Shown here in pieces: positions 1,464-49,720 of a DNA stretch of 64,000 bases. Source of the stretch: Heterodontus francisci (lineage: Eukaryota); assembly GCF_036365525.1 (NCBI RefSeq), contig NC_090397.1, positions 23,558,034-23,622,033 on the forward strand, given 5' to 3'. Numbering within the stretch: the stretch's first letter is position 1; the number at the start of each line of letters is the position of its first letter. The position numbers and the translations under genes were made by a program. The notes beneath the pieces were generated by a model. It had not been told where the DNA came from. It saw nothing but the letters and a program-made list of their open reading frames with translations, and made no database searches.

Positions 1464-1643
1464 CTACTTTAATGGATAATATTCTGCCCTCTGTAAATTA
1501 CTGTATTATGCAAATGACACTTAGTCTCTTACCCTTGCCCATCCTTTTACATGAAGCCTAAGTACAGTCAGCATAGAGAGGAATTGTTGAGCCATCACAA
1601 ATGAATCTTGTCATCATTCTGTGTTCCATTCATTGAATTTCAG

Positions 1644-1925
1644 AATCTGGTGATGTTCTTAAGTGAGGTACTTGTTTGGCTGATGGCCGATGTTCCCAAA
1701 GACATTAGCATACGAATGAAAAAGGAGAAAACCCTGCTCGTTGATGTGTTCCTGAAGGAAGAGCAGGAGAAGATTAATCTGATCGAAAGTTTTCTAGTGC
1801 GGGACGGGCAGATGCAAAAGCCCAAGAACGAAGCACACAGGGCTCGAAAGGCCAGCTTCGATCAGATAGCCAGAAGTCAGCGGAGCAGCTTCGCGTCATT
1901 TAGCTCACAGCACACAGACGTCTGA
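1644..1925 (+). CDS. ANO2: Anoctamin-2 (TMEM16B) terminal coding exon
   Basis: Acceptor 'ttgaatttcag|AATCTGGTG' (phase 0). Peptide NLVMFLSEVLVWLMADVPKDISIRMKKEKTLLVDVFLKEEQEK...SFSSQHTDV* matches the ANO1/2 C-terminus after the last TM helix. The SQHT(D/N)V ending is the ANO2 type (mammalian ANO2 ends SQHTNV). Stop TGA at 1923-1925. Confidence 0.9.
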   Translation, partial: NLVMFLSEVLVWLMADVPKDISIRMKKEKTLLVDVFLKEEQEKINLIESFLVRDGQMQKPKNEAHRARKASFDQIARSQRSSFASFSSQHTDV

Positions 1926-4452: not shown

Positions 4453-4810
4453 AGGCTGAATTTTATTCCCACCTTGGCTCACAGTCAGACCCCTGTTTAA
4501 GTCACGGCAGGCAGCCAATTAACTGCCCATTGTTGACGATGCCATCCCTTTAAGGAATGAGCTCTCACCTCCAGAGCTGTGGGTCAATTACAAGGCCGGA
4601 AGCTCTGCAGTACCAGCAGCGCCACCGAGAGTGGAGGCTGGAATTATCCACTTAAGGCCCTCAATTGGCCTGGGGTGGGAAGGCCACCCTTGACCTTCCC
4701 CGCCATGGACAAAATGGCAGGGAGCTCAGGCAACGTCGGAACGGCACCCCTTTCCATTTTGTTTGCACCCCCTCCCCCCACCCCCTCCTCTGTTCCTGTC
4801 TCCAAGGGAA
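4453..4810. mobile_element. GC-rich non-autonomous DNA element (Harbinger-type MITE remnant)
   Basis: Starts 'ggctgaatttta'; has the internal 'ccacttaaggccctcaattggcc' motif shared with the other MITEs in this window. Confidence 0.5.
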
Positions 4811-7754
4811 AGATAAAAATAAATTATCTTTTTTGGTGGTATTGGTTGAGGGCAAAATGTTGGCCGGGATACTAGGAGAACCCGCTGCTCTTCCTTGAAA
4901 GATTGCCTGAAAGGGAAGACAGAGGCTTTATTTAACGACTTCTCCAAAAGCATAGTAACTGATATTACAGCACCCAATCAGTTAACTCTTTCCCCAGAGC
5001 TCATTGAATTTCATTTGGTGACAGGACAAATGTTGATGAATCTCGCATTTCCAACAACTTGCAGTGCAAAGTATCATGGAAATTAAAAAGGCAAAAGCAA
5101 GTGTAACTAACTGCAGATGCCATTCATTGACAGGTTACAGGAATTTTTGGGCCATTATATATACGTGTGTATATGTGTGTGTGTGTGAATGCACATGCAT
5201 AAAGCCCAACAGAAATGAGGCAGAAGAAAAAGATGTTGCAAGTCTATGACTGAGTTTTGTCAGGTACTCTCATCTTTTTAGCTAAAAGCTGCGAAGTCTA
5301 CTTACATATTAAATGTAAATCAGTGTAGATATTCCTGTGGTACTTAATAAAGTCTCACACTTCTAATTTTGGGGCTCCATTTCGGGATTACAGTACCTAC
5401 TAAAGCATTTAGAAAGGCCAATAAAGAAAAGCAAATCTTGAGCATGACCTCAGAGAAGGCTCCATGAAGGAAACATAAGGAGCCTGAAAGGACATTTGAA
5501 ATCAATTATAACAAAGGCTATGAGAAATAACTTGCAGCTTTCCTCTAATTCCCACAAACCAAGTGACAGTGGTCACTGGTTGGATCATTTTTTTTGCAGC
5601 AGAGCTAACATCTGTTTCCAGGAAAATGCCCCGTGCTTCACACCATAGAAAACAGCGGAATATCTTCCGAAAGGAACATGCCTGTGCAGGATGGATACCA
5701 TCATGTGGACAGTACTGTTGCCAAGAGGATTGGATTCGAGCAGTTGAAGTCCAATCTGTGGTAAAAACGACTGCTCACTGCTCAGCATATACTCTAAGGT
5801 GACAGCAAATGTATTTTCTTTACAACAAAATAATGTTTAATATTCAGGGATTTAAACTCATTTAAATCTTAGGAAAGTTCAAGGCCAGAAATAAAAATCA
5901 GTCCATATAGCTAGGTCCAAAAATGAATAACTATCAATCTTCCATTCTCCCAAATATTTATCCTTTATACTGTTCCTAACTATCTGCCTGCCTGTTTAGT
6001 CTCTTTCACATAATCATGATCCTCTATATAAAGTTGTTAATTCCTCCTTCTAAGTTTCAGCTCTCGAGTTTGTGGCAATCTCCAACATATTTTCCGTTGA
6101 TGCATTCCCTTAACAACATTCACCAGCAATATCACAGGGATTCTCCTGATCTCCCACTTTAAGTTCAGTAGGGAATTGGTGGTAATGTCATGGCTGTTCA
6201 AACTCTCCTAACAGCCCAGATATCTAAATTGAGATGTCTTGAAGTAAACTTTCACACCAATACCTTATTGTAAAGTTATTTTTATTGAATACAGCAAACT
6301 AACACATGCATTGCTGCAGTGCAAAAAGTAAACAAAAACTAGCTGTATTGTTTTAAGTGCAAACATGTGAGAGATCAGTCTTGAAGCAATTAAGATGTTA
6401 AAGTTCTAAAGCATTGTGAAATGATGCAGAGTCAGATTAATCTTGGAGTTTGGCGGATCTTTCAATATTTATAATCGTCATATTTTTTGAATAAATCAGA
6501 GTGTACTATGATAAAGATGACTATGGTATGTGGACAAATAATATGCTGGTTATTAAAGTAATGTTATAAATCCTTTGAAATATATTTTGTAAATTATTTC
6601 CATTTTTCAAGACTTGGAACCAGTCTCAGGAACAACTGATTCTTCTTTGAGTACTTTTCTTTGAAATACCTATAAAGTAAAATTGGAGAGAATGCACAGT
6701 TAAACTGAAGTATCCCAGGATGATAGACATTATAGCACAGAAGGAAGCCATTTCAGCTTATTATCAGTGATAACTCTTCAAAGTGGAATGAAGCAATCAG
6801 ACTCAGAGAGTAAACTGCAGGCCATGACATAATATCATGCATTGATGACAGAGTTTTATTAAAGATACTGCCATACAATTTGTTCACTATTTTTTATTTT
6901 CCTCTTTAGTAAGCACATCCCACCAGATGGGAGAAGGAGCCAGTCTGGTAGTGGTGAGGGATCAACCGCAGCGCAATGAACTTCATTAGCCTGCTCCAGC
7001 TGGGATGAATGACTAAGTAATGACTATCCCCCTTGAGTGGGGGGAGGTAGGCAGGGTGTGAGCTCTAGGAAGATGTTAAGATATTCAGGCTCCAGCAATA
7101 TCCTTGCCCACTGTTCAGTATTAAGAGCTCCTTAAACCTTTGCTGCACCAAACTACACCTAACTAACTAAACTAAACTAAACTAAACTCCATGGCACCCG
7201 CCTCATGGGGAGGCAATAATTTGTGACAGCTTCCTTAACCCTCTGTTGCAAGGAGAAACTGGCTGTTCCGGCTGACGATTAGAACTTATTTAAAACACAG
7301 GACCACTAGTAAACCAGCACTAGTATACTTTCCATTGACTGCAAGAAAGACAGATACCTGGGTTTCTGGTGGGTTGTGTCATCCCAACAGTCCCAATCCT
7401 TTCGGTAATGTCAGAAGAAAAGGGGGCAAGAAGTGCCTGCAAACACTCCAGCCCCACACTATCTCCTTCCGCAGCATCCATTAGAATATTTAATGCCCCG
7501 AATTCTGGCTCCTCTACCGCAACATCCAGTACAAACCTTCCAGGCCTTGGAATTTCCATGCACAAAGTTTTAAACGTCAAAAATAAATACATTTTTAAAA
7601 ATTAGCCTTAAAACTTCAGTCTTTCTTGGGATGGATTCAAGCACAGGCTTGGAAGAGGGATTGTAAGTTGATGCAAAACATTTCAGTCCCTCCAGTAGGT
7701 TTCCATCCCTTCAGCCTAGAAAAAGTATATTGATGTGTGAGTGTGACTGGTAGG

Positions 7755-13575: not shown

Positions 13576-13969
13576 TTGAACAGCTTGGCTAGGGGAACAG
13601 CTAGTTCTGCAGCACAAGTCGTCAGTACTGCAGCCTGAGAAATGTCCCGACCTTTGCACACAGGATATTGTGCCCCAAAATTGACACTTATGATGAATGA
13701 TGATTCTGGACCTGCTTCAGAGAATTTCATACAAAACATAGGTGCTGCATGAGATTAATAAGGGCCAGAGTGATCTCCTGGATTGGTTTTGATCACCCAA
13801 GGGAGTCAGAGAGAAATTTTCCAGATTTTTTCCCCTGAACGACCTTGGCTTTTGTCTGAACTTTTACCTCTCTTAGGAGATTAGTGGGTTCTGATTGGAG
13901 TGGGAATGTCTACATTTTGATGCATAAGGCATCACAACTTTATGGAGCAGGCTGGATGGACCAGTAGAT

Positions 13970-23284: not shown

Positions 23285-25620
23285 CAGATTGCACAAAGAG
23301 CAATGAGGTGAATGACCATGTAATCTATTTTAGTGGTGTTGGTTGAAGGATAAATCTCAATCAGGACACCAGGAGTTGGATTTTTGTTACAGAGACAGGA
23401 AACGGGAGCCGAAGCTGATTATGGGTCAGAAACACACCTCTGTTGGGAAACTGATTCAGATTCAAAATTTCAAATGAGTAAGCCCTTAATTGGTTTGGAG
23501 GCAGGTTTCCTGTCCACTTGCAGCCACTTGCAGGAATGGAGGCAGGTCAGATCAAGTGTGGGACTCATGTTGACTCCCACAACAGCAGCTGGTTGCTGGT
23601 TGCCCTCAGCAAGAAATCTGCATTTTGTGCCAAAACCTAGTACTTCATCAGAGGGAAGTGTGCTGTCACAGGGGAGTTGGAGGCCTAGCACTAGGGGCAG
23701 GACAGACCCTCGCTTCATCGATGCCGACTTCGATCTCATGCTGGAAGCAATGAGGGAGAGGAGGGAGGTCCTCTACCCGGAGGGTGGCAGGAAGAGGCCA
23801 CCTTATTGTGCAACAAGGGCACCTCTCTATTCAGTGAAAGCCCCCTCCATCCCCACTTTCTCTTCCTGTCTTACCTCCTGTTCCTCCCCAATGAGCTGTC
23901 TCCTTCCAGGGACTCACTGTCCTCAAAGTCCACACCTGTCTGGAGGGCCATGTTATGGAGAGCGCAGCAGAACACCACAATGCCCGAGACCCTTGCAGGA
24001 GGATATTGGAGGATGCCACCCGGCCGGTCTGGGCACCGGAATTGCACCTTCAGAAGCCTGATGACCTGCTCAATGGTTGGCCTGCTGAGTAGGTGGCATT
24101 GGTTGTTTGGCCGCTGTGCCTCTGTCTGGGGCTCCTGTAGAGGAATCGGTAGCCATCTCTTCAAGGGATTTCCCTTGTCCCCTAGAATCCATCCACACAC
24201 TTTGGGGGATGGGCTGAAGATCCTAGGCAGCCTGGACTGTTGGAGGATGAAGGAGTTATGGCAGCTGCCAGGAAAGCAAGTGCACAAGGGGGAAGTTCTT
24301 GTTGTGGTTGCAGACCAGTTGGACGTTGAGGGAATGGAAGCCCTTCCTATTGATGGATCTCACTTACTCACTGGGTGCCTTGATGGTCACATGGGCACAA
24401 GCAATAATTCCCTGCACCTGGGGGAATCCTGCAATGGAGGTGAAACTCAATATCTTCTGTGCTGTGCAGGCCCATCAGTGTCAAAAGTGGATTTAGTCCC
24501 CCACACTCCTGAAGATGGCATCTGTGACCTTCCCTGATGGCATGATAAGCTGCTGACTTCGAGATGCCATCTAGGTCCACAGCTGATCCCTGGAATAATT
24601 CAGTTGCATAGAAATTCAGGGGGATAGTGACCTTGATGGCTGCAAGTAAGGGACTACCATGGGGGCCGCAAGGCGTCAGTTCATTATGTATCAGAGCATA
24701 AAGGTCCAAGACTATCTGCCTGGATAGACATAGCCTCCTACGCACTGGCACTCTGTCATTTACAGGTAGCTGACTCTTGGGCGGTAGACCTGATGTCTTA
24801 GGTAGTGCCTTCTTCCCCTTGCAGTCCCCCGCTGTGCTCCTCTGGCCTCCTGCTGTCCTGGCTGATCTGTCCAATGTCAAGAGTCGCCTCTTCCCATCTG
24901 AACTCCCTCAGCTGGGGTTCGTTTGACCATCAAACCTTCCCCTGCCAACCCCAGCTGTCCTAATGATGCCAGCGGGCTCACATCTCTCTCCGGATTCCTG
25001 CCATTCACCACAGAGAAAAGCAAGTCTTCCAGCTGCAGCAATGATTACTCTGTGGCACTTTTGAAGCAGCTGAGCTTTATTTTGTGCCTCTGTATTATTT
25101 TAATCAGCCTTTCCCATGCCCTGATGACCCCCTGTAGTATTTACGAGTTGAACACCCTCCCGTATTCCAGACATGGCGTTCTCCCCGTTCCCTTCTTTAA
25201 AAATTCAAAACTGCTGCTAGCAAGTCTGTTATTGAGCTCCTCAACTGGAGTGCGAGGATGCCATTTCCTCCCTCCTGGCGTCGCTTTAAAAATGGTGTCA
25301 CATTCTGGAGGCAGCGGAACCCAGTACTGACCCCTGAGAGCGCGATCTTTAAATTGTGTTCACAGCTGTCCCCACACTGAGCGGGCTTTAAAAATCCGGC
25401 CCCAGAACTCCTGTGCTCTTTTTCAAATCATGTTATGTGATCTTTAACATGCACCTGAGAGAGCAAATAAGGTCTTGGTTTAACACCTCATCCAAAAGGC
25501 AGCACCTCTGATAATGCAGTGTTCCCTCAGTAATACACTGAAGTATCAGCCGAGGTTATTTGCTCAAATCTTCTGACCTAATCCATGATTTTCTAGCTAA
25601 GAGCCAAGGATGCTACTACT
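23285..25620 (-). mobile_element. Deu-domain SINE (SacSINE1/AmnSINE1-like), split by a Harbinger element (pieces 23285-23372 and 25403-25620)
   Basis: The two flanks join into the sequence seen intact at 42800-43250, e.g. 'ggtttaacacctcatccaaaaggcagcacctctgataatgcagtgttccctcag'. Confidence 0.75.
23373..25402 (-). mobile_element. PIF/Harbinger DNA transposon (decayed transposase on -, Myb/SANT-like ORF remnant on +)
   Basis: HARBI1-like DDE motifs PGSCHNSFIL, GWILGDKGNPL, IEQVIRLLKVQFRC, CCALHNMAL (23871-24880, -). Myb-like PRFIDADFDLMLEAMRERREVLY (about 23705-23800, +). TIRs gagttggattttt / aaaaatccggccc; apparent 3-bp TSD CAG. Confidence 0.88.
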
Positions 25621-26540: not shown

Positions 26541-27363
26541 CGCAAATTGGATAAGTATTTGGAAAGGAGTAAATAATAGCTGTTATGGGGAACGGGAAGT
26601 TAAATGGGACTAGAGGAAACAGGTCTTGTTGAAGAGCTGCCACAGGTATGAGCTAAATAAGCTCATTCTGTGCTATAATTTCAATGATTCTATGTGAGGG
26701 CTTTAAGCACCAAGGATCACTGGAATTCATGGCCATGCTCGTCAGTTCCCAGGCATAAGTTTACCTGTAGTCTGGTAATTAAGGATTAGCGTCACAAATG
26801 AACCGATCTGTCGGTTACTCCCCAAAAAAAAACACACTCTGCAGAATGTTTGGAATGCTGGAACTTGCTGCCCTGCCCTAACATGTATTTTATATTTGAT
26901 TTTCTAATCTGAACTTCCAAACAACCCAAGCTTGCTTAAAGCTGAAGGAAATCCTATATTGTACAGCCTTCACAAAAAAATAGGCCTGTCAGCTTAGATA
27001 CTTTCTAAAAAGGATTGCCCTTTTAAATCTCACAACACAAATATTTGTATTTTTCATCAGCTGGAGAATTCTAGTTAAGCACTGGCAGTAGGTACAAAGT
27101 CTTCTAGTTGTCTTCACAGCCATACATCATTGCTTCTTTTCTTCAACCATAATTGAACATAAAACAGATGATATCAGTTTGCACGACACATTGCCAGATT
27201 TATAATCAATTTTCAGTCAGAAATCAATAGCCGGCAAGTGGTAGAGCTCAACCTGCCACTCTGCTGAAGATTGCAACTTGAGCACATCCACCTGCAGCTA
27301 TTTTGCTGTTAGATCAGTAAGGTTAATCTTTTTTTGAAGTTGGTTGCTTTTAAAGATACTTAC

Positions 27364-27459
27364 ACGAAATTGTTTCAGTCTTTCTGCTCTCTCCCGCAGG
27401 ACTTGTTCTTGCACTGCTGTCTTCTTTGCTCGTTCAGTTCTCCATTGTACCTGTTTCTT
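27364..27459 (-). CDS. Putative exon 4 of unidentified coiled-coil gene
   Basis: 'tttgatccag|AAGAAACAG...TTTCGT|gtaagt', 96 nt, phase 0/0, KKQVQWRTERAKKTAVQEQVLRERAERLKQFR. An alternative in-frame acceptor would start the exon at 27450. Confidence 0.65.
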
Positions 27460-28229
27460 CTGGATCAAATCAAATATTATTTGAATCAGAAGCTAAAGTT
27501 CAGAGTTTTATTTGCCGGAGCTGACAGCAATGAAGTTAGCTTGCTGTTGAGAATGCTTTTCACTGTCTGGCAATAAATGCTGAAGATTTTTAAATAATAA
27601 ATAAAGATTTACCTATTGAAACCCTGGTGTAATGAGCTTTTGGTACAATATAAAGTTTTACTTTAGATCTAAAGTATGGTATGTGATTTACAATGACTAC
27701 AGAAATCCAAGTAAAATATATCATTATCTTTAGACAGGTCATTTTCATGTAAACAGTTAGAATAAAATATATGTAATATTGCATTTAGAAATTCAGGGAA
27801 AAGGAGGCTTGGAGGCCAATTCGTGTGACCATCACCATATGTCATGTAAAAAGCCTCTTCTGCCTAGCTTCTAGTGCTGGGGATAACTCAAAAAGTGGTT
27901 AGAATTAAGCCCAAACAATACCATCTTGTTTTTCTTTATGCCTCCTAATAATTAGGACCTATCAGACTCCTGGATCATTGCTCTCAGCTTCTTCATGTTA
28001 GATATTATGCTAGGTTGTGAAGTATGGCAAGTTCATAATGAGAGTGGAGTGTACTTGTTAATTCATGGTGGCTTGAGAAATATGTGGTTTAAATTATTCA
28101 ATTATTCCTAGATAATAGTCTTTATCATCAGAACTGCAGAATGAAGCTATCACTATGGTTTTCACCTCTACCATGCTCACCTCAGACATAAACTGAATAT
28201 TCATCCTAGATTCAACCTAGCAGAGATGA

Positions 28230-28500
28230 GTTGGTTGGAGGGATACAAAGATTATTTAGGATGAAAGGAATCAAGAATGATCTAATAAGACGGTTTGGTC
28301 CAGAAACAATGCTTGTACAGAAGATCCAAGAAAGACGATAGCGATGGTTTGGGCACAATGGAAACAGCTAGAATACCTGCAGAGATACAGAGAACAAGAA
28401 GCCAAGGAAGACCAAGGAAGACTGGATAGGCAATGTCAAGAGTGACTTGTCATAAAAGGGGCCCAGATGACTGAAGGATGATTCAGAAGCATTAACAGTG
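28230..28500 (+). mobile_element. Old RTE-like LINE 3' fragment
   Basis: Degenerate RWFGH ('cgatggtttgggcac') and GRPRKTWI ('ggaagaccaaggaagactggata') motifs. Confidence 0.55.
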
Positions 28501-29049
28501 GAATGAATTTCTTTGGCCCCATTATCACTGCTAACCTGACAGATGGAAATTTAGTTGCAGTAATAGTTTATCCTGGAATGTGCTCTGCTCACAGACGCCT
28601 AAAAATGTCATGAGTTCTCCATAGCTTTGACTCTGAGTGACTGACATTCAGTTGCTCATGGGTCTGTGAGCCTGCTATTGGATACAACAGTGTGAGGGTC
28701 TGACTCACAGACATCAATCTCAGGGAAATCAAACTCAAAGTAACATGTGCTTTGACTGGCATTCCTCATTTTCCGTGATGCAAATAGATAGTTTAAAAAA
28801 TCTATTCACCTCAGTTTGTGCCCTGAATGGTAGCTGCAACCACCAACTTACTTAAAGTTAAGACATTATTCGTGAATAAAACATTTGTTGCAAATCATTT
28901 GATTCTGGAAAGGGAGAAGAAATGAACAGGTGTGCCCCATTGCTTACCTGTGAAACAATGGCACCTTTGACACAACTACACTTTTTGGTGAATTTTTCTG
29001 CAGCAACTGTTCATTTCTGCTCCTTTCAACTCCATGAAATACAAAAATC

Positions 29050-30030
29050 ATGACTTACTTGCCCTTGTACTCCGTGCCTCTTTTTATGAACCCCAAGTGA
29101 CCCTTTTATGACTTTATTTGCCTGCTTTGTACTTTCAAGGAATTAAACATTGAAACTCTCATGTTTCTCTGTCCTGCCACACCCTTCAACATCTTTCCAT
29201 TGAATGTAACATCCATTCTTTATTTTTCTTCTCAAAATACAATATCTTACGTTTAAGTAAATTATTGATTAAATTGTCCCAGGCAATAGGTTGCCAACAG
29301 TTGAAGTACTGTGCAGTGTTAGGTGCTCCAATATAGAAAGAATGTTAAAGTTACAGGGTGTGTAGAACATAGCTTAGCCAAGATGCTTCCAGGGCAGAGA
29401 AACTATAGTTCTGAGCAGAGACTGAGGATACTAGCATGATTTCTACTAGAACAGAAGGCGAGAAGGCACTTTAGTAGAGGCTCTAAAGTTATGCATAGTT
29501 TTAATAGGGTGAATTAGGAAAGACTATTTCTTCTGGTTGGCAAATCCAGAATAAGGGGGCACACTATTAGAGTTAGGCCATTCATGGGTGAGATCAGGAA
29601 GCATTTTTCACACAAAGGAAATCTGGAATTCCATCCCCCAAAAGGCTATAGGTGCTGGACCAATTGAAATTTGCAACACAGAGATTGATGGAATTTTATT
29701 AGCTAAGGGCATTAAGGAACATGGTACAGATTAGCCACTATCTAATTGAATGACAGGCTTGAGGTGTTGAATGGCCTACTCATGTACCTATGCTCCTACA
29801 TTCCTATATTCCAAATTAAATTGCATTTGCCTCTTGTTTGCCCATAGCACTAATCTATATCTTCCTGCAGTCTTTTACAGTCTGCCTTGCTGTTTACCAA
29901 ACCTACTCTACTTTAGTGTCAATAGCAAATTTCAATATCATGTTCTCAGGCACAAGCCCAAGTCAATGTGATATATCTAGAACAAAAGTGGAGCCAGTGA
30001 CCCCTGGGGTACACCATTTCCAACTCTTCT
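29050..30030. mobile_element. Old CR1 fragments (a + strand 3' end at about 29290-29795 within a - strand CR1 remnant)
   Basis: Homology by eye to the intact CR1 ORF2 at 14700-15594, in both orientations. Confidence 0.6.
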
Positions 30031-30063
30031 CTAATACAAGCAACACATTAACCCTAAAGTACT

Positions 30064-31056
30064 ACAAAAGCAAAATACTGCAGATGCTCGAAATCTGAAA
30101 TAAAAAAGAGAAAATGCTGGAAATACTCAGCAGGTCTGGCAGCATCTGTGGAAAGAGAAACAGTGTTAAAGGCTAGGATTTTGTGTGGCCCGCTGAGGCA
30201 GGGTCGGAGGCGGGGGGCATGGACCATTGAGACGGGTGGTTTGGGGGGGGGGGTGGGAGGTGGTATGGAGGGCCCATCACCAAGCGATCTTCCTGGGGTT
30301 GGGATTGGCTGTTGACGCCCTTCCCACCCAGAGGCCAATTGAGACTCTTAAGTGGCCTATTAACGGCCAATTAAGAGCCATTTCCTGCAGCCGCTGGGAT
30401 CTGGCCAACGGCCAGTGTGGGGGTGGGGGTGGGGGGGGCTGCTGAATCTGCCACATGGAGAGATTGCCGTAAAATGAGGCGCCCTCCCTGCGGGCTTGAG
30501 AGGGAGTGGTCCCAGCTTCATGGGCAATTTGTGGCCCATGGAGGGCCCCCACTGGGAACTACTTAACCCCCCGTGAACCCCCATCCCCTGGACTGCACAA
30601 TCACACCCCAGAACCCCCTCGCTGGAGCGTTCTGGACTGGCTCTGGCGACCCTGCCTCACTTACCTGAGCTCTGAGGTTCCAGCGCTGGGGCTGGGTCCG
30701 ATGCCTCTGCAGTACTGGCAGTGGCCACCACTCCCGTTGGCTCTGCCGATACTGCTGTGCCACCGGACCTCTTTTTGGAGACGGGATCCCCGTCTTTAAA
30801 GGGACGGGAATCCCGGCTTGTGAAACTTAGCAGTTAAAACACTGGAGGATTACTCCAGGGGGCATGATACGCCAAGGCAGGGATCCTCTGTCTTCTCAGC
30901 ATGGTCCCAGGAGCCCTGGTTTCAGCACAAAATCCAGCCCAATGTTTCATCATCAGTTCTGATGAAAGGTTATCAACCTGAAATATCAACTCTGTTCCTC
31001 TCTCCAGAGATGCTGCCGGACGTGTTGAGTATTTCAAGCATTTTCTGTTTTTATTA
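30064..31056. mobile_element. Inverted pair of Penelope-type hammerhead repeats (30064-30170 plus 30941-30950 on -, 30951-31056 on +)
   Basis: 'aaaatgctggaaatactcagcaggtctggcagcatctgtgg...gttaa' is the reverse complement of 'aactctgtt...agatgctgccggacgtgttgagtatttcaagcatttt'. Confidence 0.75.
30171..30940. mobile_element. Harbinger-type MITE inserted in the Penelope-type repeat
   Basis: TIRs 'ggctaggattttgtg' / 'cacaaaatccagccc'. Confidence 0.75.
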
Positions 31057-31535
31057 ACCATAAGAACATAGGAGTAGGCCATTCCGCCCCTCGAGCCTGC
31101 TCTGCCACTCAATAAGATCATGGCTAATCTGATTGACCTTAACTCCACTTTCCTATCTCCCCCCATGACCCTTCACTCCCATGTCAATCAAAAATCTGTC
31201 TATCTCATCCTTGGATACATTCAATGACCCAGACTTCACTGCTTGCTGGGGAAGAGAACGCCAAACACTAATGACCCTCTGAGAGAAGAAATTCATCCTC
31301 ATCTCTGTCTTAAATGGGAGACCCCTTATTCTGAAACTGTGCCCCCTAGTTCTAGATTCCCCCATGAGGGGAAACATCCACCCAGCATCTACCCTGTTAA
31401 ATCCTCTCAGAATCATATGTTTCAATAAGATCACTGCTCATTCTTCTAAATGCCAATAAGTATAGGCCCAACCTGCTCAACCTTTCCTCATGAGAAAAAG
31501 CCCTCAGCCCAGGAATCAGCCGAGTGCACCTTGTT
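31057..31535 (-). mobile_element. CR1 3' fragment
   Basis: MFPLMGESRTRGHSFRIRG...FFSQRVISVW; tail 'cataagaacatagg'. Confidence 0.88.
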
Positions 31536-32188
31536 GAATAGCACCCGTTTCCAGGCCTTCGGCTAGTCTCTTCAATTCAGCTTTTTTGAGCTGCAAAGCT
31601 TCCAATAGGAAAGCTTTAAAAACTTTTTATTTAGTTACTAAGAATCTGATCAATGGAACTAATAAATTGTACACCAATAAAACTAATAAATAGTTCTGTA
31701 TTGTTTTTTAAAGTTACTTTCAGTCATTTAAAATCGGGTAACTCACAGGTGATAGAGCACTCTGATTAAAAATACCTTTTCTCATAATAAACCTATTTCA
31801 ACTTGCATTAATAAAGCTGCAGGAGGTTACCACCCTTAAATATATCAAGGAATATTTTTAAATGCAAAATTACGTTCTAAAACACTGTCCGATTGAGCTA
31901 GTTGGCAGTGTGAAAATACGTATGAGCAGAAACTTGAGCAAAACATTCTTCTTGCATAACTAGGGCAATTTTGAGAGCAATTTATGCTCAGATCGTTAAT
32001 TGCACCCAATGTGGAAACTCTTGGCTGTTGTTGCTGTAGGGCTTGGCACACTTGGGCTTGGTGATTGTGTACTAATAAACTTTTGTGAAAAGCTCAGGAT
32101 AGTATCACTACATTGATAGTGTGAAATGCCTTCATTACATGTGTACGTTGTGGACCATCAGAAATTATTCCAAATGCTATTCCAATAC

Positions 32189-32248
32189 CTCTTTAAGTTC
32201 CTTTTGTTTCTGCCTTTCCTCCTGTTCTCTTTGTTGCCTCCGTTTCAT
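32189..32248 (-). CDS. Putative exon 3 of unidentified coiled-coil gene
   Basis: 'ttttttctatttcattcag|ATGAAACGG...AAAGAG|gtattg', 60 nt, phase 0/0, MKRRQQREQEERQKQKELKE. Confidence 0.72.
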
Positions 32249-32338
32249 CTGAATGAAATAGAAAAAACTAATTTGATTCTCAGATAGTTCAGATGACTTC
32301 TAATAAACATCAGTACTTAGAAGAAAGATGCTGGGTAC

Positions 32339-32464
32339 CCTTTCCAGATGCTGTTGACTGTCTAATTGTTCTGTTTGCTGGATATTAGATATTAACTGAA
32401 GCCTCTTTTCATCCAGTGTCCTCAGAAATGCATTATCCTCCTCCTTATTCTCATCCTTCACTGC
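32339..32464 (-). CDS. Putative exon 2 of unidentified coiled-coil gene
   Basis: 'ttgtattttttcaatcag|GCAGTG...GAAAGG|gtaccc', 126 nt, phase 0/0, AVKDENKEEDNAFLRTLDEKRLQLISNIQQTEQLDSQQHLER. A 90-nt intron separates it from the next exon. Confidence 0.7.
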
Positions 32465-34048
32465 CTGATTGAAAAAATACAAATAAGGCTAAAATCATAC
32501 CAATCATTGTGAGAAATCCTGGTAAAATCAATTCAGTATTGCCAAAGGGAAATAATTCTGAAAGAGAGAGATCATAAGGAGTGAATTTATTTCAAAATTA
32601 TTTGGAGACTCGATTCCGGAGCTTAGGCATCTGGTGGTTGTAAAGTTACATTTAACCTCAGTAATCTTGAGGCTATCAGTCAGGATTCCCACTCCGGATC
32701 CCTGCTTGAAAAGGGTCAGTATCAAGTAAGGACAGACTTCGCTGTTATATGTTCCCAATGGCGAATGATCTTTCTAGGATCACATGTGAAAAATGGCTAC
32801 TGAAAGAATGACCAACTAAGCAATGTCAGAGGAAGCCCACCATTGTGTGTATTAGACCTTTAAGAAGAAGATAAGGGAAGAAAATTGGTTACAAAAATTA
32901 GTTAGAAATACTCACTAAAGAGCATTTAATCCATGAGCCTTAACAAATCATGATTGATAAATCTGACAGGAACTCTTCTTCACCAAAAAAAATAGAAATA
33001 CCCTTTATTGGTAATTTTCCCACAAAGTATTTATTTTTATATCACAGTGAATAGTAAACAACATTCTATGTGCTATAAGGCTTATTTCAAACATAGTCAG
33101 TATTTCAATGGGATCTTATCTCTATCCTCGCGGGAATTGCCACCATCTTGAAAATCCACACAGCCAGAAGTGAACAATTACATTTAAACAGCAATCATGG
33201 AGCAAAATAGTACAGATTGTGGCAGTGAGCCTCATAGATAAAGTGAAGAAGTAACGCTGTGATTTCATATAAAGATTTGACTGTGAAATGCGTTTAAAAA
33301 AATCTAAATTCAGTCCCTGAATGAAATTAAACTGACAACAGCATGCTTTATTTCCATATCAAATCCAAAATCTAATTATTGTTAAAGTATAAAACAATAT
33401 TTTTTCATCTTGATGCATTGCCACGAAGCTGAAACTTTGCTCTGGAACTATGATGCAACTTTTTCATGTTAGGCTGAGAATGTTCTGTCACAGACAGTTA
33501 AGAGTAATTTCAAGATGGCAACCATAGAGTTCATTAGGGAGGGAAGTGATGGCAGAGTAAAATGCAAATAATGGAATTTTGTACAATTTTTGAATGAAAA
33601 GCATTTTATTCCATTGTATGTGTGCATAGAACAAGCTCCAAAAGTTAGAGGCCAACTGTGCTCATAAGGTTGTACTGTACACTCAGGTGTTATTGTATAT
33701 ATGGCAATATAAAGATTGAAATTCAGAGAAATTAAAGGAGGCCAATTGGCCCACCACTACTGTGCCAATCCTAACTCTTTAACAAGAGCTGTCTACTCTC
33801 ATCCCATTTTCCTGCCTTTTCTGTGTATCCTGTTATGGTCTTCCTTTTCAAATACTTACCAGTTCTCTTTTCAAGTGGGAATAATTAGACTTGAGTTTAT
33901 TGTTCAACCTTTTAATTTAAAATGTGCAGAAGTCTTCCCACTAGATCTAAGGTAACATATGGGTGTGTTACATGACTCTAAAATAAAACCATAAGACTAC
34001 AGCCTACAACCTACAATGCATATGTCCACTTATTATCTATCTGGACAC

Positions 34049-34735
34049 CTATCTGCAAAGAAAAGGGCCCTGTGTATTAATATATGTAGCTTTCAGTACA
34101 CGCAAATGCGCCACACTGCGAGCACTACTGACAATCTTAAATTGGTTGTCAGTGTAATTCTTAGCACACTGAGGATTATTTAGCAAATGTTGTCCAAACA
34201 AAGAATCACATCTAATGTTAGACACTGTGTTTTGAGCTTTGCAAGCACGGGCTGGTTGGGTATGGCCTGTACCTTGCCCATTGCGAACAGCGGAAGGGAC
34301 ATGTTGTTTGATACGAGCCGCCAGTCTTTGGGATGTATGGCCTATATACCTAGCATCATACTGGCAGACAGAAAGAACATGTACAAACATTGCGCCTGTT
34401 CCAGCTAAACAAAATAAGGGACAGCCATTCACTGGCTCATTCCTCAGGGCAATGCCTTAACCTTAACCAGGCATAAAGATGCCTGGTTTAAATTTCAAAC
34501 AAAGCTTGGCAGTTAACTGTCAGTCAGTGTAAACTGGTGCATTATTCATGGCAACACCTCTACCAATCAGAGTTCAATTGCCAACAAATTAGCACTCTCT
34601 TCTCATACAGTATAAAGTCATTGTTTTCCCTTACATTGGTATTCTTGTGGATTGTCCTGATGAGTGCAAGATGAAAGGCTTCGACAACATGTCTCTATTT
34701 TCAGCAATACTCAAGTTCTGAACTACCAAATGACT
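34049..34735. mobile_element. Penelope-like element 3' end: GIY-YIG endonuclease (inverted, -) plus ORF end and pLTR with hammerhead (+)
   Basis: CQYDARYIGHTSQRLAARIKQH...GQHLLNNPQC...LKATYINTQGPFLCR on - (34049 to about 34365). It continues on + as RQKEHVQTLRLF from about 34366. Hammerhead motif at 34652-34687. Confidence 0.85.
34652..34687 (+). ncRNA. Minimal hammerhead ribozyme motif (Penelope pLTR type)
   Basis: ttgtc-CTGATGA-gtgcaagat-GAA-AGGCTT-C-gacaa: perfect 5-bp stem I (ttgtc/gacaa), conserved core, near-palindromic stem III, UUC cleavage triplet. Confidence 0.65.
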
Positions 34736-35559
34736 AATCACATTTTTGTTTTATAACGTAATTTGCATGAATCACTTAACTAACATTATTCATTTTACAC
34801 CATCATCCTTAGCAAAAGGGATGAAACCATTTTTAAATTAAGCAGTAATAGATGGCCACTTGTATCAAGCAGGAATAACGAAAGGAAAGGTTTGTTATCC
34901 TCATATCCTTGGTATAGGATCGACAGATTCCACTAATGCCATCTCATCAAAGTTTCAGCTCTCTCTTGAATTACTCCACCCATGCTTTTCTTGTTGTTCT
35001 TTGCAGATTTCAAAAAAAGCTGAGCAGAGAATTATCCATTGTCACTGAAATACTGAATGAAGTGATGCCCCATTATATATGTATGTGCACTCTGAAATAG
35101 CTTTAATTGAACTAAACTGTCCTAAATTATGTTCAAATGTATCACCTCCAGTCACCTTCTGCTGAATTGTTTCAGTGTCAGCACTTTAACATCATGTGTT
35201 ATTTCAGTTCCAACAAAGAGACCAGGATTCTCTGCCAGGCAGGACGTGGCAGAGAATGGTACATTTCTGATCTGTTACTTAGCAGAGCAGAGGTTGTGAA
35301 CTAGGATGCGGAACTGGAAATGATTGCAGATGTAGGCTGATGCAAGGCCGTCGAGGAATTTGTAAAATGGTTCCAGATGTAGGCTGATGTAAAGACCTGG
35401 AAGAATTTGGTTGCCGAGCTAGGCTGATGCTAGACCATGGAGGAATTTGACTTTAAGGATGCAGAGTTTGACTTTAATGCACCAGGGAACCAGGATGCTG
35501 GGAAGGATGTGTTCATTAGTGGGCAGGGTAAGATGCAAGTAATGGAGTTCTAGATGAGT

Positions 35560-35975
35560 TGGAATTTGCGAAGGGTGGAGCTGGGGATGCCAGAGAAGAA
35601 ACTGTTTGGAAGGTCTATACTGGAAGTCATTGAGCATGGGGAAGGGTTTCAGCTGGGTTGAGTAAGTGAAGTTAGGCAACATTACAGAAATGAACTAGTT
35701 GTGAGGTTTGAAACTAGGTTTAAAGTCAAAAACAGTACATTGAGCTTACATACTGACAGATTAAGCCTCAGAAAAAGCTGGGAAGGGGGATAGAATTGAG
35801 GAGGTGCTGTGGTGAAAAGTTTCTGACAAGAGCTGAAAAGAATGGCTTCAGCTTTGCCATTGATCAGTGGGCAAAATTCTGGCTTCACCACAACTTAATA
35901 TTGGACAGTTACACGACACAGCAAGGGTCATGAGATCAAATGTGATGGTGGAGACACACAGCTGGGTGTCAGCAC
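35560..35975 (-). mobile_element. Highly decayed L2 fragment
   Basis: LINGKAEAILF (cf. LNIGKTEAIVF) motif; weak homology to 20900-21200. Confidence 0.5.
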
Positions 35976-36346
35976 TTCAACCCCTTCTACCCACTAGCAC
36001 AGACTGGGTCAAGTGACTTGTTTTTGTGCTTTACCATTCTATGATTCTATTCTATAATTGATGCCAAATTCAGTTCTAATAGTTTATTTTATACACTTTT
36101 ATTGAAGTTTCCATCATATTTAATTGGTCAGAAATTCCATAACCATTTTTACTCAAGGATGCTTACTTTATATGAACATAGATTCTCAGCACGTTAATTG
36201 TCTTTTGCCCTTTGCCACTTTGTCTGACACTTTGATCACATGACCAGTCAGTTGCCATATCTTTCTCAGTTAACGCTATTGCCATCTGGATTAGAAATAA
36301 GCACAAACTGATAAAAATGCTGTTGTTTTAATAGTATACCACCTAC

Positions 36347-36408
36347 CTGTGCACCAAGGGTATCTCCCTTTAGCTTTGGGTTGTCCATCTTGATTTTTCT
36401 CCTCCAAA
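36347..36408 (-). CDS. Putative exon 1 (possible start codon) of unidentified coiled-coil gene
   Basis: 'atgtttactgcag|TTTGGAGG...GCACAG|gtaggt', 62 nt, ends in phase 0; WRRKIKMDNPKLKGDTLGAQ. ATG at 36388 in 'AAGATGG' (good Kozak context). Confidence 0.55.
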
Positions 36409-36867
36409 CTGCAGTAAACATATATACAATCAAAAGTAATGACAAAATGTACCTGGCTCAGAAAAGGGATACAGAGACAAACTGCTCAAATTTAACACAT
36501 ATTGTAAAATACAATATGCTTTCTTTCCTGGCTTATATATGAAGAAATTAAGAAGAATAACGTTTTGAAGAAAACTCCCCTCAAAATGCTCCTATCTTTC
36601 AAAAAAAATCGTATAGCTGTTTTTGTATTATTCTCTGGCCACTGACTCCTGTAGGACAGGTCTTTCCTATCAACAAAAAGCTGTCCAATTTTTTTTATAC
36701 TTGAGTCTTATTGGTAATCATTGATCTTACTGGGGTTAGTCTTGACATCACTACTCCCCTCTCATGCACCAAAGTGTCATGGTCAGCCTTATGCGTGCTC
36801 CGAGAAATGTGCCTTTGCATTTCATCTCGTTTACAGGAAGACTGACTGCACATTGGAGTCATTGAGT

Positions 36868-37005
36868 CATAGAGTTATACAGCACAGAAACAGGCCCTTT
36901 GGCCCATCGTGTCTGTGCCAGCCATCAAGCACCTAACTATTCGAATCCCATTTTCCAGCACTTGGCCCGTAGCCTTGTATGCTATGGTATTTCAAGTGCT
37001 CATCA
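36868..37005 (-). mobile_element. CR1 3' tail
   Basis: 'catagagttatacagcacagaaacaggccctttggcccatc' is the reverse complement of the CR1 tail. Confidence 0.75.
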
Positions 37006-37732
37006 TTAGAAACTAAATGCAGGACAGGGCAATGCCTAGCTCACTCTCCGAAGATCCAAGTGGCAAAGTAGAAGTGGCTTCCATTCCAAACAATATTCAT
37101 GGTGAAAGCATTTTTGTCAAACCTTGCTTTGTTAGTTTGAGAACGGAAGAATCTAAAGAGCCATGCATTATCTTTGCTGTGATGTGCAATGAAAAGAATA
37201 ATACTCCATAATTGAGCTATACTTAATTAATACAATCATGTGACCTAATGTGATTTACATCAATGCATCGTGTTTGTTGTAAACAGATGCGGAATCACCA
37301 AATGCATTTTCATGATAACAGTGCCCCTTTAAAATACAAGCCAATTCTGGAGGCTAAAACTGAAAAAGGATGATCAATTAAATTTAAACAGAAACCTGTG
37401 AAAGATTATCAGATAAACTGACTCATCCCATCAGAAGAAAAGAAACCATTGCCAAGACTATACTTACCCGGAAGAGCTTAATAATATTGTGGCATAATAA
37501 CTCTTGAGTTTTAATAATAGGTCATCCAGGAGATTAAAGTGATATGTTGATTGTTGCAATGCTTTGAAAACTGCTTCAAATAGGGGGTGGGGGGTGGTTA
37601 ATGATTGTGAGTTTACAAGACTACCAGCATGATAAAAGGAGAAAGTAACTGAGAGTTGTTGCCTGTAGCTGGAGGATTAGATTAAGCTGATAACCTGCAG
37701 TTTCCTCTGGAGTGGGATCAGATAAAAGCCTG

Positions 37733-40383
37733 AAGAGCCAGCAGGCCTCGCTCTTTGCCAAGGAGGCCTCCAAGATCATCTTCCGGTCCAGAGTCCGCTC
37801 CATCGAGCAGGATGAGACGTGCTCGCGTTACCTCTTCCAAAAGGTACACAGAGAGAGCTCTGTTATCAGCAGCCTGAAGGGAGAGGATGGCTCGGTAACG
37901 TCTTCGCAGTCCGACATACTAAGGATCAGCAAATCCTTTTATGCTGGGCTGTATGACGCGAAACCCACAGACTGCAGAACCTCCCAGTCCTTCCTGTCAT
38001 CTATCACAGAGGTCTTAGATGACAGCAGGAGGGAGAGACTGGACAAGCCGCTAACTCTGGACGAGCTGACAAAGGCCGTCGAGTCCTTCGAGACAAGTAA
38101 AACTCCCGGAAGCGACGGCTTACCAGTCGAGTTGTACTCGGCCCTGTGGGTCTGGGTCGGACCGGACCTGCTGGAAGTATACGAGAGTATGCTCCTGGCC
38201 GGCAGCATGTCAGAATCCATGAGGAAAGGCATCATCCCCCGCATCTACAAGCGGAAGGGGGAGAGGGCAGAAATCAGCAATTGGCGGCCCATTTCACTGC
38301 TTAATGTTGACTGCAAGATTCTGTCCAAAGTCATAGCCAGTCAAGTCAAGTCTGCTCTGGAGTTGGTGATCCACCCCGATCAGACCTGTACTGTACCCGG
38401 CAGGAAGATCTCTGAAAGTCTCGCGCTACTCAGGGATATGATCGCCTATGTGCGGGACAGGAGGGTGGACACCTGCCTCATCAGCCTGGACAGGAGAAGG
38501 CTTTTGACAGGATATCGCACACCTACATGATGGACGTGCTTTCCAAAATGGGGTTTGGGGAGGGAATCAAACTGCTCTACGCAAACATCAGTAGCGCAGT
38601 CTCAATCAATGGGTGGGAATCGGAAAGCTTCCCGATCCAATCTGGAGTCAGACAGGGCTGTCCTCTCTCCCCTGTCTTGTTTGTTTGCTGTATTGAACCC
38701 TTTGCTGAGTCTATTAGGAAGGATGCGAGCATAAGAGGGGTGACAATCCCAGGCAGCGGAGGCACTCAGGTTAAAACCTCCCTGTACATGGACGACGTCG
38801 CCGTCTTCTGCTCGGATCCGCTGTCCATGCGCAGACTGATGAGCATCTGCGACCAGTTCGAATTGGCCTCGGGAGCCAAAGTTAACCACGGCAAGAGCAA
38901 GGCCATGTTCTTTGGGAACTGGGCTGACCGATCGTTTGTCCCCTTCACCGTCAGGTCTGACTACCTGATGGTGCTGGGGATATGGTTCGGAAGGGCCGGG
39001 GCGTGCACCAAAACCTGGGAGGAGCAAGTAGCCAAGGTACAACAAAAGTTGAGCATGTGGGGGCAGCGATCTTTCTCCATTGTGGGTCAGAACCTGGTCA
39101 TCAGGTGCGAGGCGCTCACGTTGTTGCTGTACATGGCGCAGGTCTGGCCCATACCCCACTCCTGTGCTGTGGCGGTCACCCGAGCCATTTTCCGCTTCAT
39201 CTGGGGATCTAAAATGGACCGGGTCCGGAGGGACACGATGTTCAAATCTCTGGATAAAGGTGGGAAAAATGTACCCAACGTGGCCCTCATCCTGTTGACC
39301 ACCTTCGTGTGCAGCTGCATCAAGCTGTGTGTAGACCTCCAGTACGCAAACTCCAAGTATCACTACGTGCTGAGGTTCTATCTGTCCCCGGTGTTGCGAA
39401 GGATGGGCCTGGTCACATTGTCGCGGAATGCTCCATGCAGTTGGACCGTGCCGTACCACCTATCCTTCGTGGAGCAGTTTCTGCAGGAAAACACCTTCGA
39501 CCACCGATCCATCAGCCAGTGGTCTGCACGGAACATCCTCAAGGCCCTACGGGAAAAGGAGACGGGGGATCCTGTCGGATGGTTCCCCGAGCAGACCGCC
39601 AAAGTCATTTGGCGGAATGCCTCATCACCAGAACTTTCAAACAAGCACCAAGATGTAGCTTGGCTGGTGGTGAGAAGGGACCTCCCCGTCAGATCCTTCA
39701 TGCACGCCCGAAGTCTCGCCCCCTCCGCGCAATGCCCCCGCGGGGGCTGTGGTGGGGAAGAGACTGTTGCCCACCTGCTCCTGGAATGTGTCTTTGCAAA
39801 GCAGGTGTGGAAAGAGATGCAGTGGTTTTTGTTGAGGTTCATCCCAAGCAGCTCTGTAACACAGGAGTCTGTGCTCTACGGGCTGTTCCCAGGGACGCAC
39901 ACCGAGACAAACATCAACTGCTGCTGGAGGACTATCAATTCGGTGAAAGACGCCCTTTGGTCTGCCCGAAACCTGCTGGTCTTCCAGCGCAAAGAGTTGT
40001 CCACGACCGAGTGTTGCAGACTGGCAACATTCCAAGGTCCAGGACTATGTGCTGAGGGACGCACTAAAGCTTGGGGCAGCCACAGCAAAGGCTCAATGGG
40101 GAAAGACCACAGTGTAAGGTCCCCCCACCAAGCTGAATTGAGGGGCCGGATCCATGGAAAACCCCTCGAACTGTATCCGGAAAATTTTCATTTGCTGTAA
40201 ATGTAAAAATGTAATTGGCATGACAATTGTGAAATGGAAGGGTTGTGAAGCAACTCATGATTGTATTGAAAGAAACTGATCTCCCTTGGAATGTTTGTAT
40301 TTTTTGGTGCTGTTTGAAACTGTTTGGGAATGTAATTTTTACAGATTTTTATGAATAAAGTATATTTTGGAAATAAAAAAAAA
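37733..40383 (+). mobile_element. Tx1-type L1-clade LINE, 5'-truncated, recent
   Basis: KTPGSDGLP, NWRPISLLNVDCKIL, GVRQGCPLSP, YMDD and the C-terminal CPRGGCGGEETVAHLLLEC zinc motif. AATAAA plus poly(A). TSD ATCAGATAAAAGCCTG at 37717-37732 and 40384-40399. Frameshifts near 38490 and 40030. Confidence 0.93.
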
Positions 40384-45758: not shown

Positions 45759-46575
45759 GATTGCATAAGACCTTATTCCTTCCAGCACTCACTCAAAGTG
45801 GCCACTAGTTACATATTACATATCATTTACAGAACTGAAACAGGCCATCTGGCCCATTAGTGGTGTTTATGCTCCACACAAGCTTCCTTCTACTTCATCT
45901 CACCCTATTGATATAGCTTTCATGTCAGTCTTAACAGTGAGTGCTGCCATTGTATTTGATCTTCCGGAAGAGGCATCACAACTGAGATTAATCCTGACCT
46001 TAGCTGATGCCCAAGCTTACATGCTTCTGGCAGGGGCTGGTGGATAGTGCTCAGGAGCAGGAATCCTAGCCAATTTTAAGATCTGTAGTCCAGAGCACCG
46101 AGGCCACTTTCAGCACTGCCACTTACAGCCTGGCTGAGACGCAAGCACAGACTGATGAGTGAAGCTGCCAATGGGAGGTCTGGATGGCTTGGTGACTCAC
46201 TAGTTAAATTGACTGAGCCTTTTGTAAACTTCTGTAGTTAGGTTGCAGTTTTCAGCCATGATACAGACATGTGCTTGTTTCTTTTTGGTTGTCATTATTT
46301 TTGGGTCATTCCTGTTAGCAGAGATTGAATCCCATACAATACATATTTCTCAGGCAGTTTTCATGTTGAATGTTGTGCTCACACATTTATTGACAGTGTT
46401 CACTTCCTGACTACATTTTATTACATTAAAGGTGCTATATATACGTTGTTATTGTTTCCACTGACAACACAAATCAGTTAGTTTGCTGAATCAGTCCATT
46501 GTGTGGTGCAGTATAGAGCCACACATCCTAAGTTTGATTCTTGACCTGTCCTAGGCTGACTAATCTCAGCTGTCA

Positions 46576-46748
46576 GTAGCACCAGCACCAGTAGCGCCAA
46601 CAGCAACAGCAGCAACAGCACCAACACCAGTGCCATCACCAGCAGAACTACCAGCACCACCCAATTCCAGCAGCACCAACACCAGCACCAAAGCTAGCAG
46701 CAGCAGGAGCACCAGCACCAGTAACACCAGCAGCACGAGCATCAGCAA
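46576..46748 (+). repeat. Compound (CAG/CAC/CAA)n trinucleotide repeat
   Basis: 'agcaccagcaccagtagcgccaacagcaacagcagc...' over about 170 bp. Confidence 0.9.
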
Positions 46749-48180: not shown

Positions 48181-49720
48181 ACATGACAAAGAAAGTAAAG
48201 ATCACACACACATAGACTCACACACACAATAGATTCCATACTTTGAAACAAAAAAAATCTGTCAAAGGGTTGTTCGGGATCAAAGTCGAATATAACACAA
48301 AACCAACATTGTCAATATTTTCAACTCCAAAAGACCTTTATCCATTCTCACATCAGGTGCTTTCGCTTGTTGACAACGAATTATTAAATATTTTTTAAAT
48401 ATTGTAACTCATGGTTTGACCCTAAAACACAGAAAATATGTCCTTTTCTACAAAGTAACTTTTCAAATTGGGAAGAAAACAATAACTTACATCAAACAGA
48501 TGGTTGTCTGAAAATCATGTGAGGATTCGGCTAGGGAGAGGAAGCCTCCACTCCTGTGCAAGTTACAGTGAAGTGGAACTGCAGGGAGACAGTTTTTCAA
48601 TATCATGACTTCACCTCAGGGATCCAACCATTCGATTCATGTTGCTATCGCAGCTCTATACTAAAAGTGACAGCTATGTGTTAATAAAATGCCATGAGTT
48701 TGCTTGGACTTCTCCAGTACCTCTAAAAATAGAAACATTACATATGTAACATCTTACTAGATGCTTGGTCACCTAGAACCCTGGACAATAATAATGTTTC
48801 ATATTCCCAGAAAGCAGAACAAAAACACGGCCCATTAATACAAACATATTCGTCTGGAATTTGCAGCATTTTTGACGGAAAATTGTCAGTGTTCGCCAGC
48901 ATTACCCCTACGAATCCGACCATGAATTCAGGATTTAGCACAAGTGCAGATAAACACGGAAATCCTGAAGTTGCGGTCTGTCATTCCCATAGGCGGCACT
49001 GTGGGGCCCCAATGTACCCCCACCCACCCCCCCCCCCCAACCTGAGCCAACGATCAGCAAAATCAGTTGATCTGGTGAGAACTTCCTCTTTTCCCAGCTT
49101 CATATTACTGTTAGAAACCCCATAAAACATTAAACCTTGTTCAATGAGGCGTAACTGGGTTTTTAACAGCGATCTGAGTAATAACTACCGCTGATCAACT
49201 GATATGACCCTGAAAAATATATGGAATGCTGTTAAATGTCTCCATTTTGATTAATTACTAGATGGTTTAAACTAGATTTTTAAAATAATTAACAATAGTG
49301 TTTTCATGATATTTCAGCTTCTATCTTCACCTCATGTATATGTCCCAATTTTTATCTCTCTCTGTAAAATGTTTAAATAGTGATTTGATTATTCGTGCTT
49401 TTCATTTCCTGGCTGGTTTTCTGTGAGAATTCTTTAATATGATTTGCTGATTGGAACAGCTAGATGACATCACTGCAACTGCACGCTGGGAATCCCCATT
49501 AAACAACAGTGTAATCAATTGCACATCAACAGAGATAACAACCTCACCACATAGATTGCTAGATCTTACAATGAAACTTCCTTTGAGGTTGGCAGCGAGT
49601 GCCTTTGCTTTGCTGCTGAATGAAAATCCAGGCCTATGATGGTGTGGTAGAGTGGGGTTATGGGGAGGCAATTCACTACATCACCTACAGTGAGCATTTT
49701 CTCTGGCTGTGGTACAATTG

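Follow-up and report, generated by a model that had tools for sequence, protein, structure and literature searches.

A spliced gene on the minus strand

The question raised by this locus is whether a 64,000-nucleotide stretch of Heterodontus francisci DNA (NCBI RefSeq assembly GCF_036365525.1, contig NC_090397.1, here C27, positions 23558034-23622033), which as a whole is called the window below, carries a spliced gene for a long charged helix on its minus strand, and what the product of such a gene may do. A preliminary description, made from the letters alone, had proposed that four short segments are exons of an uncharacterised spliced gene that is convergent with ANO2. We confirmed that the spliced gene is genuine. 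The four segments, which are exons 1 to 4 in Table 1, are all present with AG before and GT after them (4/4), they translate as had been claimed, and they match shark proteins in the same order; the internal segments are 126, 60 and 96 nt long and the phase is 0 throughout. The last coding exon was placed by tblastn of the Pristiophorus japonicus protein P0001 (131 aa) against the window (6666-6610, E 7e-5) and is separated from exon 4 by an intron of 20.7 kb. The five coding exons together encode 128 aa in this assembly.

The exons are 64-100% identical to three shark proteins, with 12-13 of 14 residues shared in exon 1 and 15-18 of 20 in the last exon. Against P0002 from Scyliorhinus torazame (135 aa) the identities, exon by exon in order, are 13/14, 30/42, 20/20, 29/32 and 16/20. 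When exon 2 alone was used as the query, two proteins were found among 6 candidates, namely, P0001 (E 2e-12) and P0002 (E 8e-8). The stretch of exons 2 and 3 has a single match in this 6.0 Gb genome, and no paralogue elsewhere in it was better than E 1.6 with two single-protein queries; two weak matches were translated and rejected as low-complexity frames with stops.

Spliced contigs and the 5' end

Contigs from public sequencing runs were examined for spliced forms. Eleven runs are listed, eight of which, from three studies, carry part of the stretch; none is recorded as RNA and their kind is a guess. Four runs (X1, X2, X4 and X8) were aligned on positions 27200-38200 of the window, where X1 and X2 are one sample and X4 is another organism, and the contigs indicate presence only. 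The bin depths over exons 3, 2 and 1 were 30.6, 63.8 and 17.4 in X1 and 5.75, 12.0 and 3.26 in X2, and the depths expected for exact exon cover are 30.62, 64.3 and 17.35, and 5.75, 12.09 and 3.26, respectively. The exon 1 depths in both runs fit a cover that stops at 36408, and exon 2 is covered by contigs in all four runs. A contig of X1 joins 27460 directly to 32189. In record 17 of X4, a contig of 400 nt, positions 88-216 are exon 2 and positions 285-381 are exon 4, and the contig extends 19 nt beyond exon 4; the junction of exon 4 with the last exon is based on sequence. Among the rows listed, the exon 1/2 and 2/3 joints rest on depth together with record coordinates. These contigs of X1 and X4 represent spliced forms, and they are unlikely to stem from a processed copy in the assembly because the exon 2-3 stretch matches the genome only once.

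The joint of exons 3 and 4, between 27460 and 32189, is 9 nt longer than had been proposed. The extra nucleotides in X1 encode Ile-Gln-Met and are not in the assembly, and in X4 record 17 exons 2 and 4 are likewise separated by 69 nt and not by 60. The shark relatives also have three residues at this joint. The simpler reading is that the assembly has lost 9 nt in frame from exon 3 at its 3' end, and this is preferred over a microexon because in the teleost read-through gene calls P0100-P0102 exon 3 consists of 23 uninterrupted codons. A microexon was looked for and rejected: the 4,729-nt intron has no exact copy of the 9 nt, and AG and GT do not occur together at any of the eight places with at most two mismatches. 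The sole exact minus-strand copy, at 15923, lies in the following intron and is not flanked by splice signals. An allele, a species difference and an assembly error cannot be told apart as the origin of the 9-nt difference. Organism B differs from exon 4 at seven positions, and the four that are listed, two silent and two replacement changes, are too few for a ratio of replacement to silent substitution rates.

In X8 there is cover on exons 2 and 4 and none on exon 3, which may reflect skipping or a limit of the alignment. There are also database models without the exon 3 part (P0091 and P0092), without the exon 4 part (P0099) and with another last exon (P0003 and P0007). All coding introns are in phase 0, and alternative splicing may alter the length of the rod.

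A donor at 37462-37467 had been put forward as the possible end of a 5' untranslated exon, and the contigs do not favor it: the depth there is zero in X1, X2 and X8, where 4.1, 0.8 and 0.09 were expected. In X4 the bin has 0.34 against 0.29 expected, which is uninterpretable, and a short 5' piece may escape alignment so that the test is a weak one. A better candidate for the 5' exon is the one that ends at 48491. The N-terminal extension of P0108, which is an isoform of a catshark-like record with a cluster mate, P0064, that is 95% identical, matches 48590-48513 of the window (tblastn E 0.006), and the match goes on in a different frame as far as the GTAAGT donor at 48490. None of 200 shuffled sequences scored as high, although the margin is small (best 24.3 versus 25.0 bits). 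Since a stop and a frame change occur there, this exon would be untranslated in the present genome.

Table 1. Features of the helix gene and of its convergent neighbour in the window
Feature	Position	Strand	Remarks
Candidate 5' untranslated exon	48491..48600	-	3' end 48491 set by GTAAGT donor; start approximate
First coding exon (exon 1)	36347..36408	-	20 nt untranslated, ATG 36388-36386, 14 codons; AG/GT
Coding exon 2	32339..32464	-	42 aa; acidic-aromatic N-terminal patch and most variable stretch
Coding exon 3	32189..32248	-	20 aa in this assembly, 23 aa in relatives; charged segment resembling a single helix
Coding exon 4	27364..27459	-	32 aa; invariant Trp and start of conserved hydrophobic stripe
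Last coding exon	6607..6669	-	20 aa and TGA 6609-6607; AG acceptor, phase 0
Inferred 3' untranslated region	6270..6606	-	AATAAA 6281-6286 is the first minus-strand AATAAA past the stop; 3' end approximate
Last coding exon of convergent anoctamin (ANO1/2 type)	1629..1925	+	Open reading frame 1605-1925; best match anoctamin-1 chains, E 4.5e-13

An unnamed family of jawed fish

With a profile of three shark proteins, an exhaustive HMMER search over 1.84 billion representatives gave 15 matches at E <=0.001, 14 of which belong to the family and come from shark, chimaera, sturgeon, paddlefish, coelacanth and teleosts (P0013 is only sturgeon-like). The fifteenth, P0016 (E 1.8e-4), is an unrelated repeat protein of 700 aa. 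Two word-index searches, both limited to proteins of <=245 aa, were done with larger profiles. The 11-row profile found 102 proteins among 2,480 candidates, and a six-row non-teleost profile found 20 at E <=10 among 3,844 candidates. From their sequences, the roughly 100 fish relatives are an unnamed jawed-fish family. A second unnamed chordate cluster in the Atlas (108 aa, 53 members, score 0.95) has no taxa visible. In a tree built from 24 of the 67 rows of the alignment the chondrichthyans are separate (support 100/99), chondrichthyans and the coelacanth are set against sturgeons and teleosts (99/95), and the teleosts stay together (100/100). This tree follows the species, which is the pattern expected for one orthologue. 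Paddlefish (Polyodon) has two copies on different contigs, P0022 and P0007, and the Acipenser sinensis model P0005 shows a tandem duplication of exons 2-3 with unrelated flanks and looks mis-joined.

It had been suggested that the gene is possibly lost in mammals. The apparent loss looks wider than that, as no tetrapod label is visible among the HMMER or word-index matches, but the searches leave absence unproven: 23 rows of the 102-protein search have no organism, and the 11-row profile missed the coelacanth protein that was present in its own query. Labels of lungfish, zebrafish and carp are not among the matches either, nor is any invertebrate or protist label. Judging from these matches, the family was probably lost in tetrapods; should the absence hold, it would be a candidate gene loss of the transition to land.

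The gene is not hidden, as the preliminary description had it, because RefSeq, GenBank and UniRef models of it are already present in about 100 fish clusters under arbitrary automatic names. Among them are XP_072326980.1 of Scyliorhinus torazame, UPI00398F784D of Pristiophorus japonicus, which is called 'ensconsin', XP_007902350.1 of Callorhinchus milii, LOC106705025 of Latimeria, XP_041112222.1 of Polyodon, XP_023808336.1 of medaka and LOC120816923 of stickleback. The database models align over their full length with the window gene and the exon borders coincide as far as read-through calls and isoforms show; the window gene differs from them in that its exon 3 is three codons shorter in this assembly. 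The names that they carry conflict (U2AF35-related-like, trichohyalin-like, golgin A6-like, MAP7-domain, matrix metalloproteinase-2 and others) and have no domain backing. The families that gave some of these names have RRM and CCCH fingers (ZRSR/U2AF35-related), MAP7 (ensconsin) or S100/EF-hand domains. None of these domains is over the Pfam cut-off in the sharks, and they are absent from the 25 of 35 families that are listed for the 67 members. No Pfam family at all is above the cut-off in the three shark proteins (3/3), and the family most shared among the 67 members was matched by eight rows with E 0.017.

A literature search that covered NTF3/ANO2 synteny, the genes that lie downstream of neurotrophin-3, the commonest of the database names, six orthologue identifiers and tetrapod-lost genes found nothing on this gene; supplements, which could list orthologues, were outside its scope. 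The NTF3 region is discussed without this gene in the accessible part of PMC3280201. Thus, gene models are already in the databases but the family is unnamed and no description of it was found, so that the proposal of an uncharacterised gene is borne out. What emerges is a coherent family without a Pfam match, scattered in the databases under a dozen unrelated names, that sits in the well-studied VWF-ANO2-NTF3 locus. The medaka orthologue, P0077, makes knockout and tagging straightforward.

The predicted protein and its possible function

The single long helix that had been read from the sequence agrees with the AlphaFold2 model of P0001. In this model, built on a 67-row alignment, residues 10-123 form one helix of about 114 residues that would be about 17 nm long at 0.15 nm per residue; the mean predicted local distance difference test score (pLDDT) is 87.4 and 95 of the 131 residues are at or above 90. 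We propose that the helical protein of 128-131 residues is a stiff spacer or adaptor that docks a C-terminal face on a partner, and on the model and the alignment this has about an even chance of being right. The reading was reached because a conserved C-terminal face of fixed geometry is combined with a middle that is charged and rigid and with an N-terminal patch that is looser. The invariant alignment columns are W85, F110, F113 and Q114. The identity between sharks and teleosts is 9% over residues 29-56, 44% over 80-111 and 78% over 112-121, and the spacing of W85 and F110 is 25 in 62 and 24 in five of the 67 rows, while that of F27 and W85 varies from 53 to 61. Over residues 85-120 there is a hydrophobic stripe for which a period of 3.6 is the strongest (amplitude 0.155), and on the helical wheel an arc of 100 degrees takes in the W, L and F residues that are conserved at 85, 100, 107, 110, 117 and 118. 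In the exon 3 segment 68% of the residues are E/K/R and 14% are hydrophobic, and exons 2 and 4 are only 35-38% E/K/R. The favorable charge pairs of the exon 3 segment at i,i+3/i+4 number 11.9 against 5.9 unfavorable ones, and its salt-bridge z against shuffles, a simple count of our own and not a published score for single alpha-helices (SAH), has a mean of 1.26 and is above 0 in all 67 rows, which are related and not independent.

The protein would work as follows. An acidic-aromatic patch at the N-terminus, for which conservation appears strong in teleosts and weaker in sharks, would be followed by a variable, indel-tolerant linker and then by the E/K/R segment of exon 3, where salt bridges would stabilize a lone helix. 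The stripe of fixed length from W85 to L118, on one face of the helix, may then sit in the groove of a partner protein or pair with it, and a first guess for the putative partner is a cytoskeletal or microtubule-associated complex. Criteria for SAH domains, namely, richness in E/K/R and salt bridges at i,i+3/i+4, were taken from PMC5812594. The protein has in common with the SAH domains of INCENP and myosin the E/K/R-rich exon 3, the salt-bridge bias and the few hydrophobic residues; it differs from them in that the SAH-like part is short, is flanked by a conserved hydrophobic stripe and has no globular domains to connect. Small helical spacers or adaptors are themselves a known class of mechanism.

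Several observations weigh against the spacer or adaptor proposal. The predicted template modelling score (pTM) of the P0001 model is only 0.44, and AlphaFold has a tendency to turn charged sequences into long helices. With about 25-33 residues the single-helix-like part is short and has a modest z, and the exon 2 part has no salt-bridge bias (mean z -0.31). In the stripe, a period of 3.5 has an amplitude of 0.133, poorly separated from that of 3.6, so that a coiled coil is also conceivable; F113, at 220 degrees, is outside the arc and the basic residues R103 and R111 are inside it. The N-terminal patch has only 23% identity between sharks and teleosts.

It is possible, though on the unlikely side, that the protein is a ciliary or sperm-tail protein that runs along microtubules, either like a microtubule inner protein or associated with centrioles, and such a role may overlap with that of a spacer. 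The composition of a long charged helix fits this, as had been remarked earlier, and Atlas rows for the TSGA10IP/FAM161, CCDC15 and CCDC177 clusters score 0.75-0.83, but these scores are under the 0.9 that the tool takes as the mark of a lead. Foldseek against the PDB gave no matches and VIA-align gave generic helices only; several axonemal chains are among the top 50 structural matches, but all Z-scores are <=7.8 and tied with those of unrelated coiled coils. A sequence search of the PDB gave 13 matches at E <=10, none of which is an axonemal chain. The best of the 13 (E 0.027) covers 22 residues of DDX39 helicases and was taken as chance. Core ciliary proteins are usually older than a family for which, as reported above, invertebrate or protist labels are not among the matches.

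That the protein is a short and distant EPSTI1 relative that acts, as EPSTI1 would, as a helical cofactor of the N-domain of p97/VCP, possibly in the interferon response, seems unlikely. Among the named Atlas neighbours of P0002, EPSTI1 clusters (PF28372) rank best (0.92, 165 shared features), and for the paddlefish protein P0022 three EPSTI1 clusters are on top (0.92, 169 shared features), but both feature counts are below the tool's mark of 170, and only four of the ten best named Atlas matches are in the same family, a share at which, by the tool's own rating, the assignment is probably wrong. No protein named EPSTI1 was found in the HMMER search or in the word-index searches with their length limit, and the EPSTI1 clusters are 225-314 aa long. 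What the two have in common is a charged helical protein and closeness in the language model; they differ in that EPSTI1 is about twice as long and that there is no sequence-profile match. PMC11234217 reports that co-precipitation of EPSTI1 with VCP requires its coiled-coil region, and EPSTI1 is given as an ancestral interferon-stimulated gene in 10.1101/693333. The EPSTI1 locus was not located by synteny with FAM216, ENOX, TNF and DnaJ in the 600 kb scanned. Family profiles run over 600 kb near two ENOX loci gave best E values of 2.3 and 4.5, and EPSTI1 itself was not located there. Charged candidate exons of the coiled-coil type lie downstream of ENOX on contig C10 (plus strand, 21.27-21.36 Mb), at L057 5350-5532, L059 8732-8794 and L065 2646-2778. 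A search of the literature on EPSTI1 paralogues and synteny found nothing on this gene. A broader version of this idea, that a single-copy family next to NTF3, dating from early jawed vertebrates, retained in cartilaginous fishes, coelacanth and ray-finned fishes and lost toward land vertebrates, encodes a minimal EPSTI1-like helical cofactor of p97/VCP or of a similar machine, and thus a second branch, kept by fishes, of an old interferon-linked family, is quite unlikely.

A conventional homodimeric coiled coil over the full length is very unlikely. It would agree with the continuous predicted helix and with the non-teleost proteins' N-terminal part, where 50-75% of the a/d positions of a heptad are hydrophobic, but in the middle, which is 13% hydrophobic overall, only 22-33% of the a/d positions are hydrophobic in the best register in six of six proteins, and the teleost proteins' N-terminal part is variable in length and poorly conserved. 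That the segments are a decaying copy or chance segments is hardly conceivable. The 9 nt missing at the end of exon 3 relative to the relatives and the RNA-type contigs would speak for decay, but they are lost in frame, the splice sites and frames are all intact, spliced contigs exist, and the exons have the identities to three shark proteins given above.

Neighbourhood and repeats

The claim that the gene is convergent with ANO2 holds, since a last exon of the ANO1/2 type ends on the plus strand at 1925 and NTF3 is on the other side. Further anoctamin exons on the plus strand lie upstream of the window (best match anoctamin-1 chains, E 7e-25), and a VWD exon is further upstream at C27:23250895 on the same strand as the anoctamin. 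A neurotrophin frame at C27:23653584-23653910 on the minus strand matches neurotrophin-3 best (E 2e-70 versus 2e-52 for NGF). The order is thus VWD, then the anoctamin reading toward the helix gene, and then the helix gene and NTF3, both reading toward the anoctamin. We take the human order to be VWF-ANO2-NTF3, which matches the order here, and the convergent anoctamin is by this gene order called ANO2. The synteny was read in this genome, and the records of other species were placed by sequence only. From the anoctamin stop to the stop of the helix gene the distance is 4.7 kb (1925-6607). Plus-strand AATAAA sites occur throughout this interval and past 6490, and the 3' untranslated regions of the two convergent genes could overlap in antisense.

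Repeats are found around and between the exons. At 37694-40200 on the plus strand there are two overlapping reverse transcriptase-like frames of a non-LTR (long terminal repeat) retrotransposon, which likely lie in the first intron, a short way upstream of the donor at 37462-37467; this element, which by eye we take to be Tx1-like, accounts for the CpG-rich stretch there. Long reverse transcriptase frames, presumably of the LINE (long interspersed nuclear element) type by eye, are at 13921-15594 (+), 11576-12214 (+) and 54754-55458 (-), with 557, 212 and 234 aa, respectively. What looks by eye like a broken Harbinger-type transposase, and is presumably one, lies at 23354-24907 inside the 20.7-kb intron. 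A 170-bp CAG/CAC-rich tandem array at 46574-46747 gives rise to Gln/His-rich frames.

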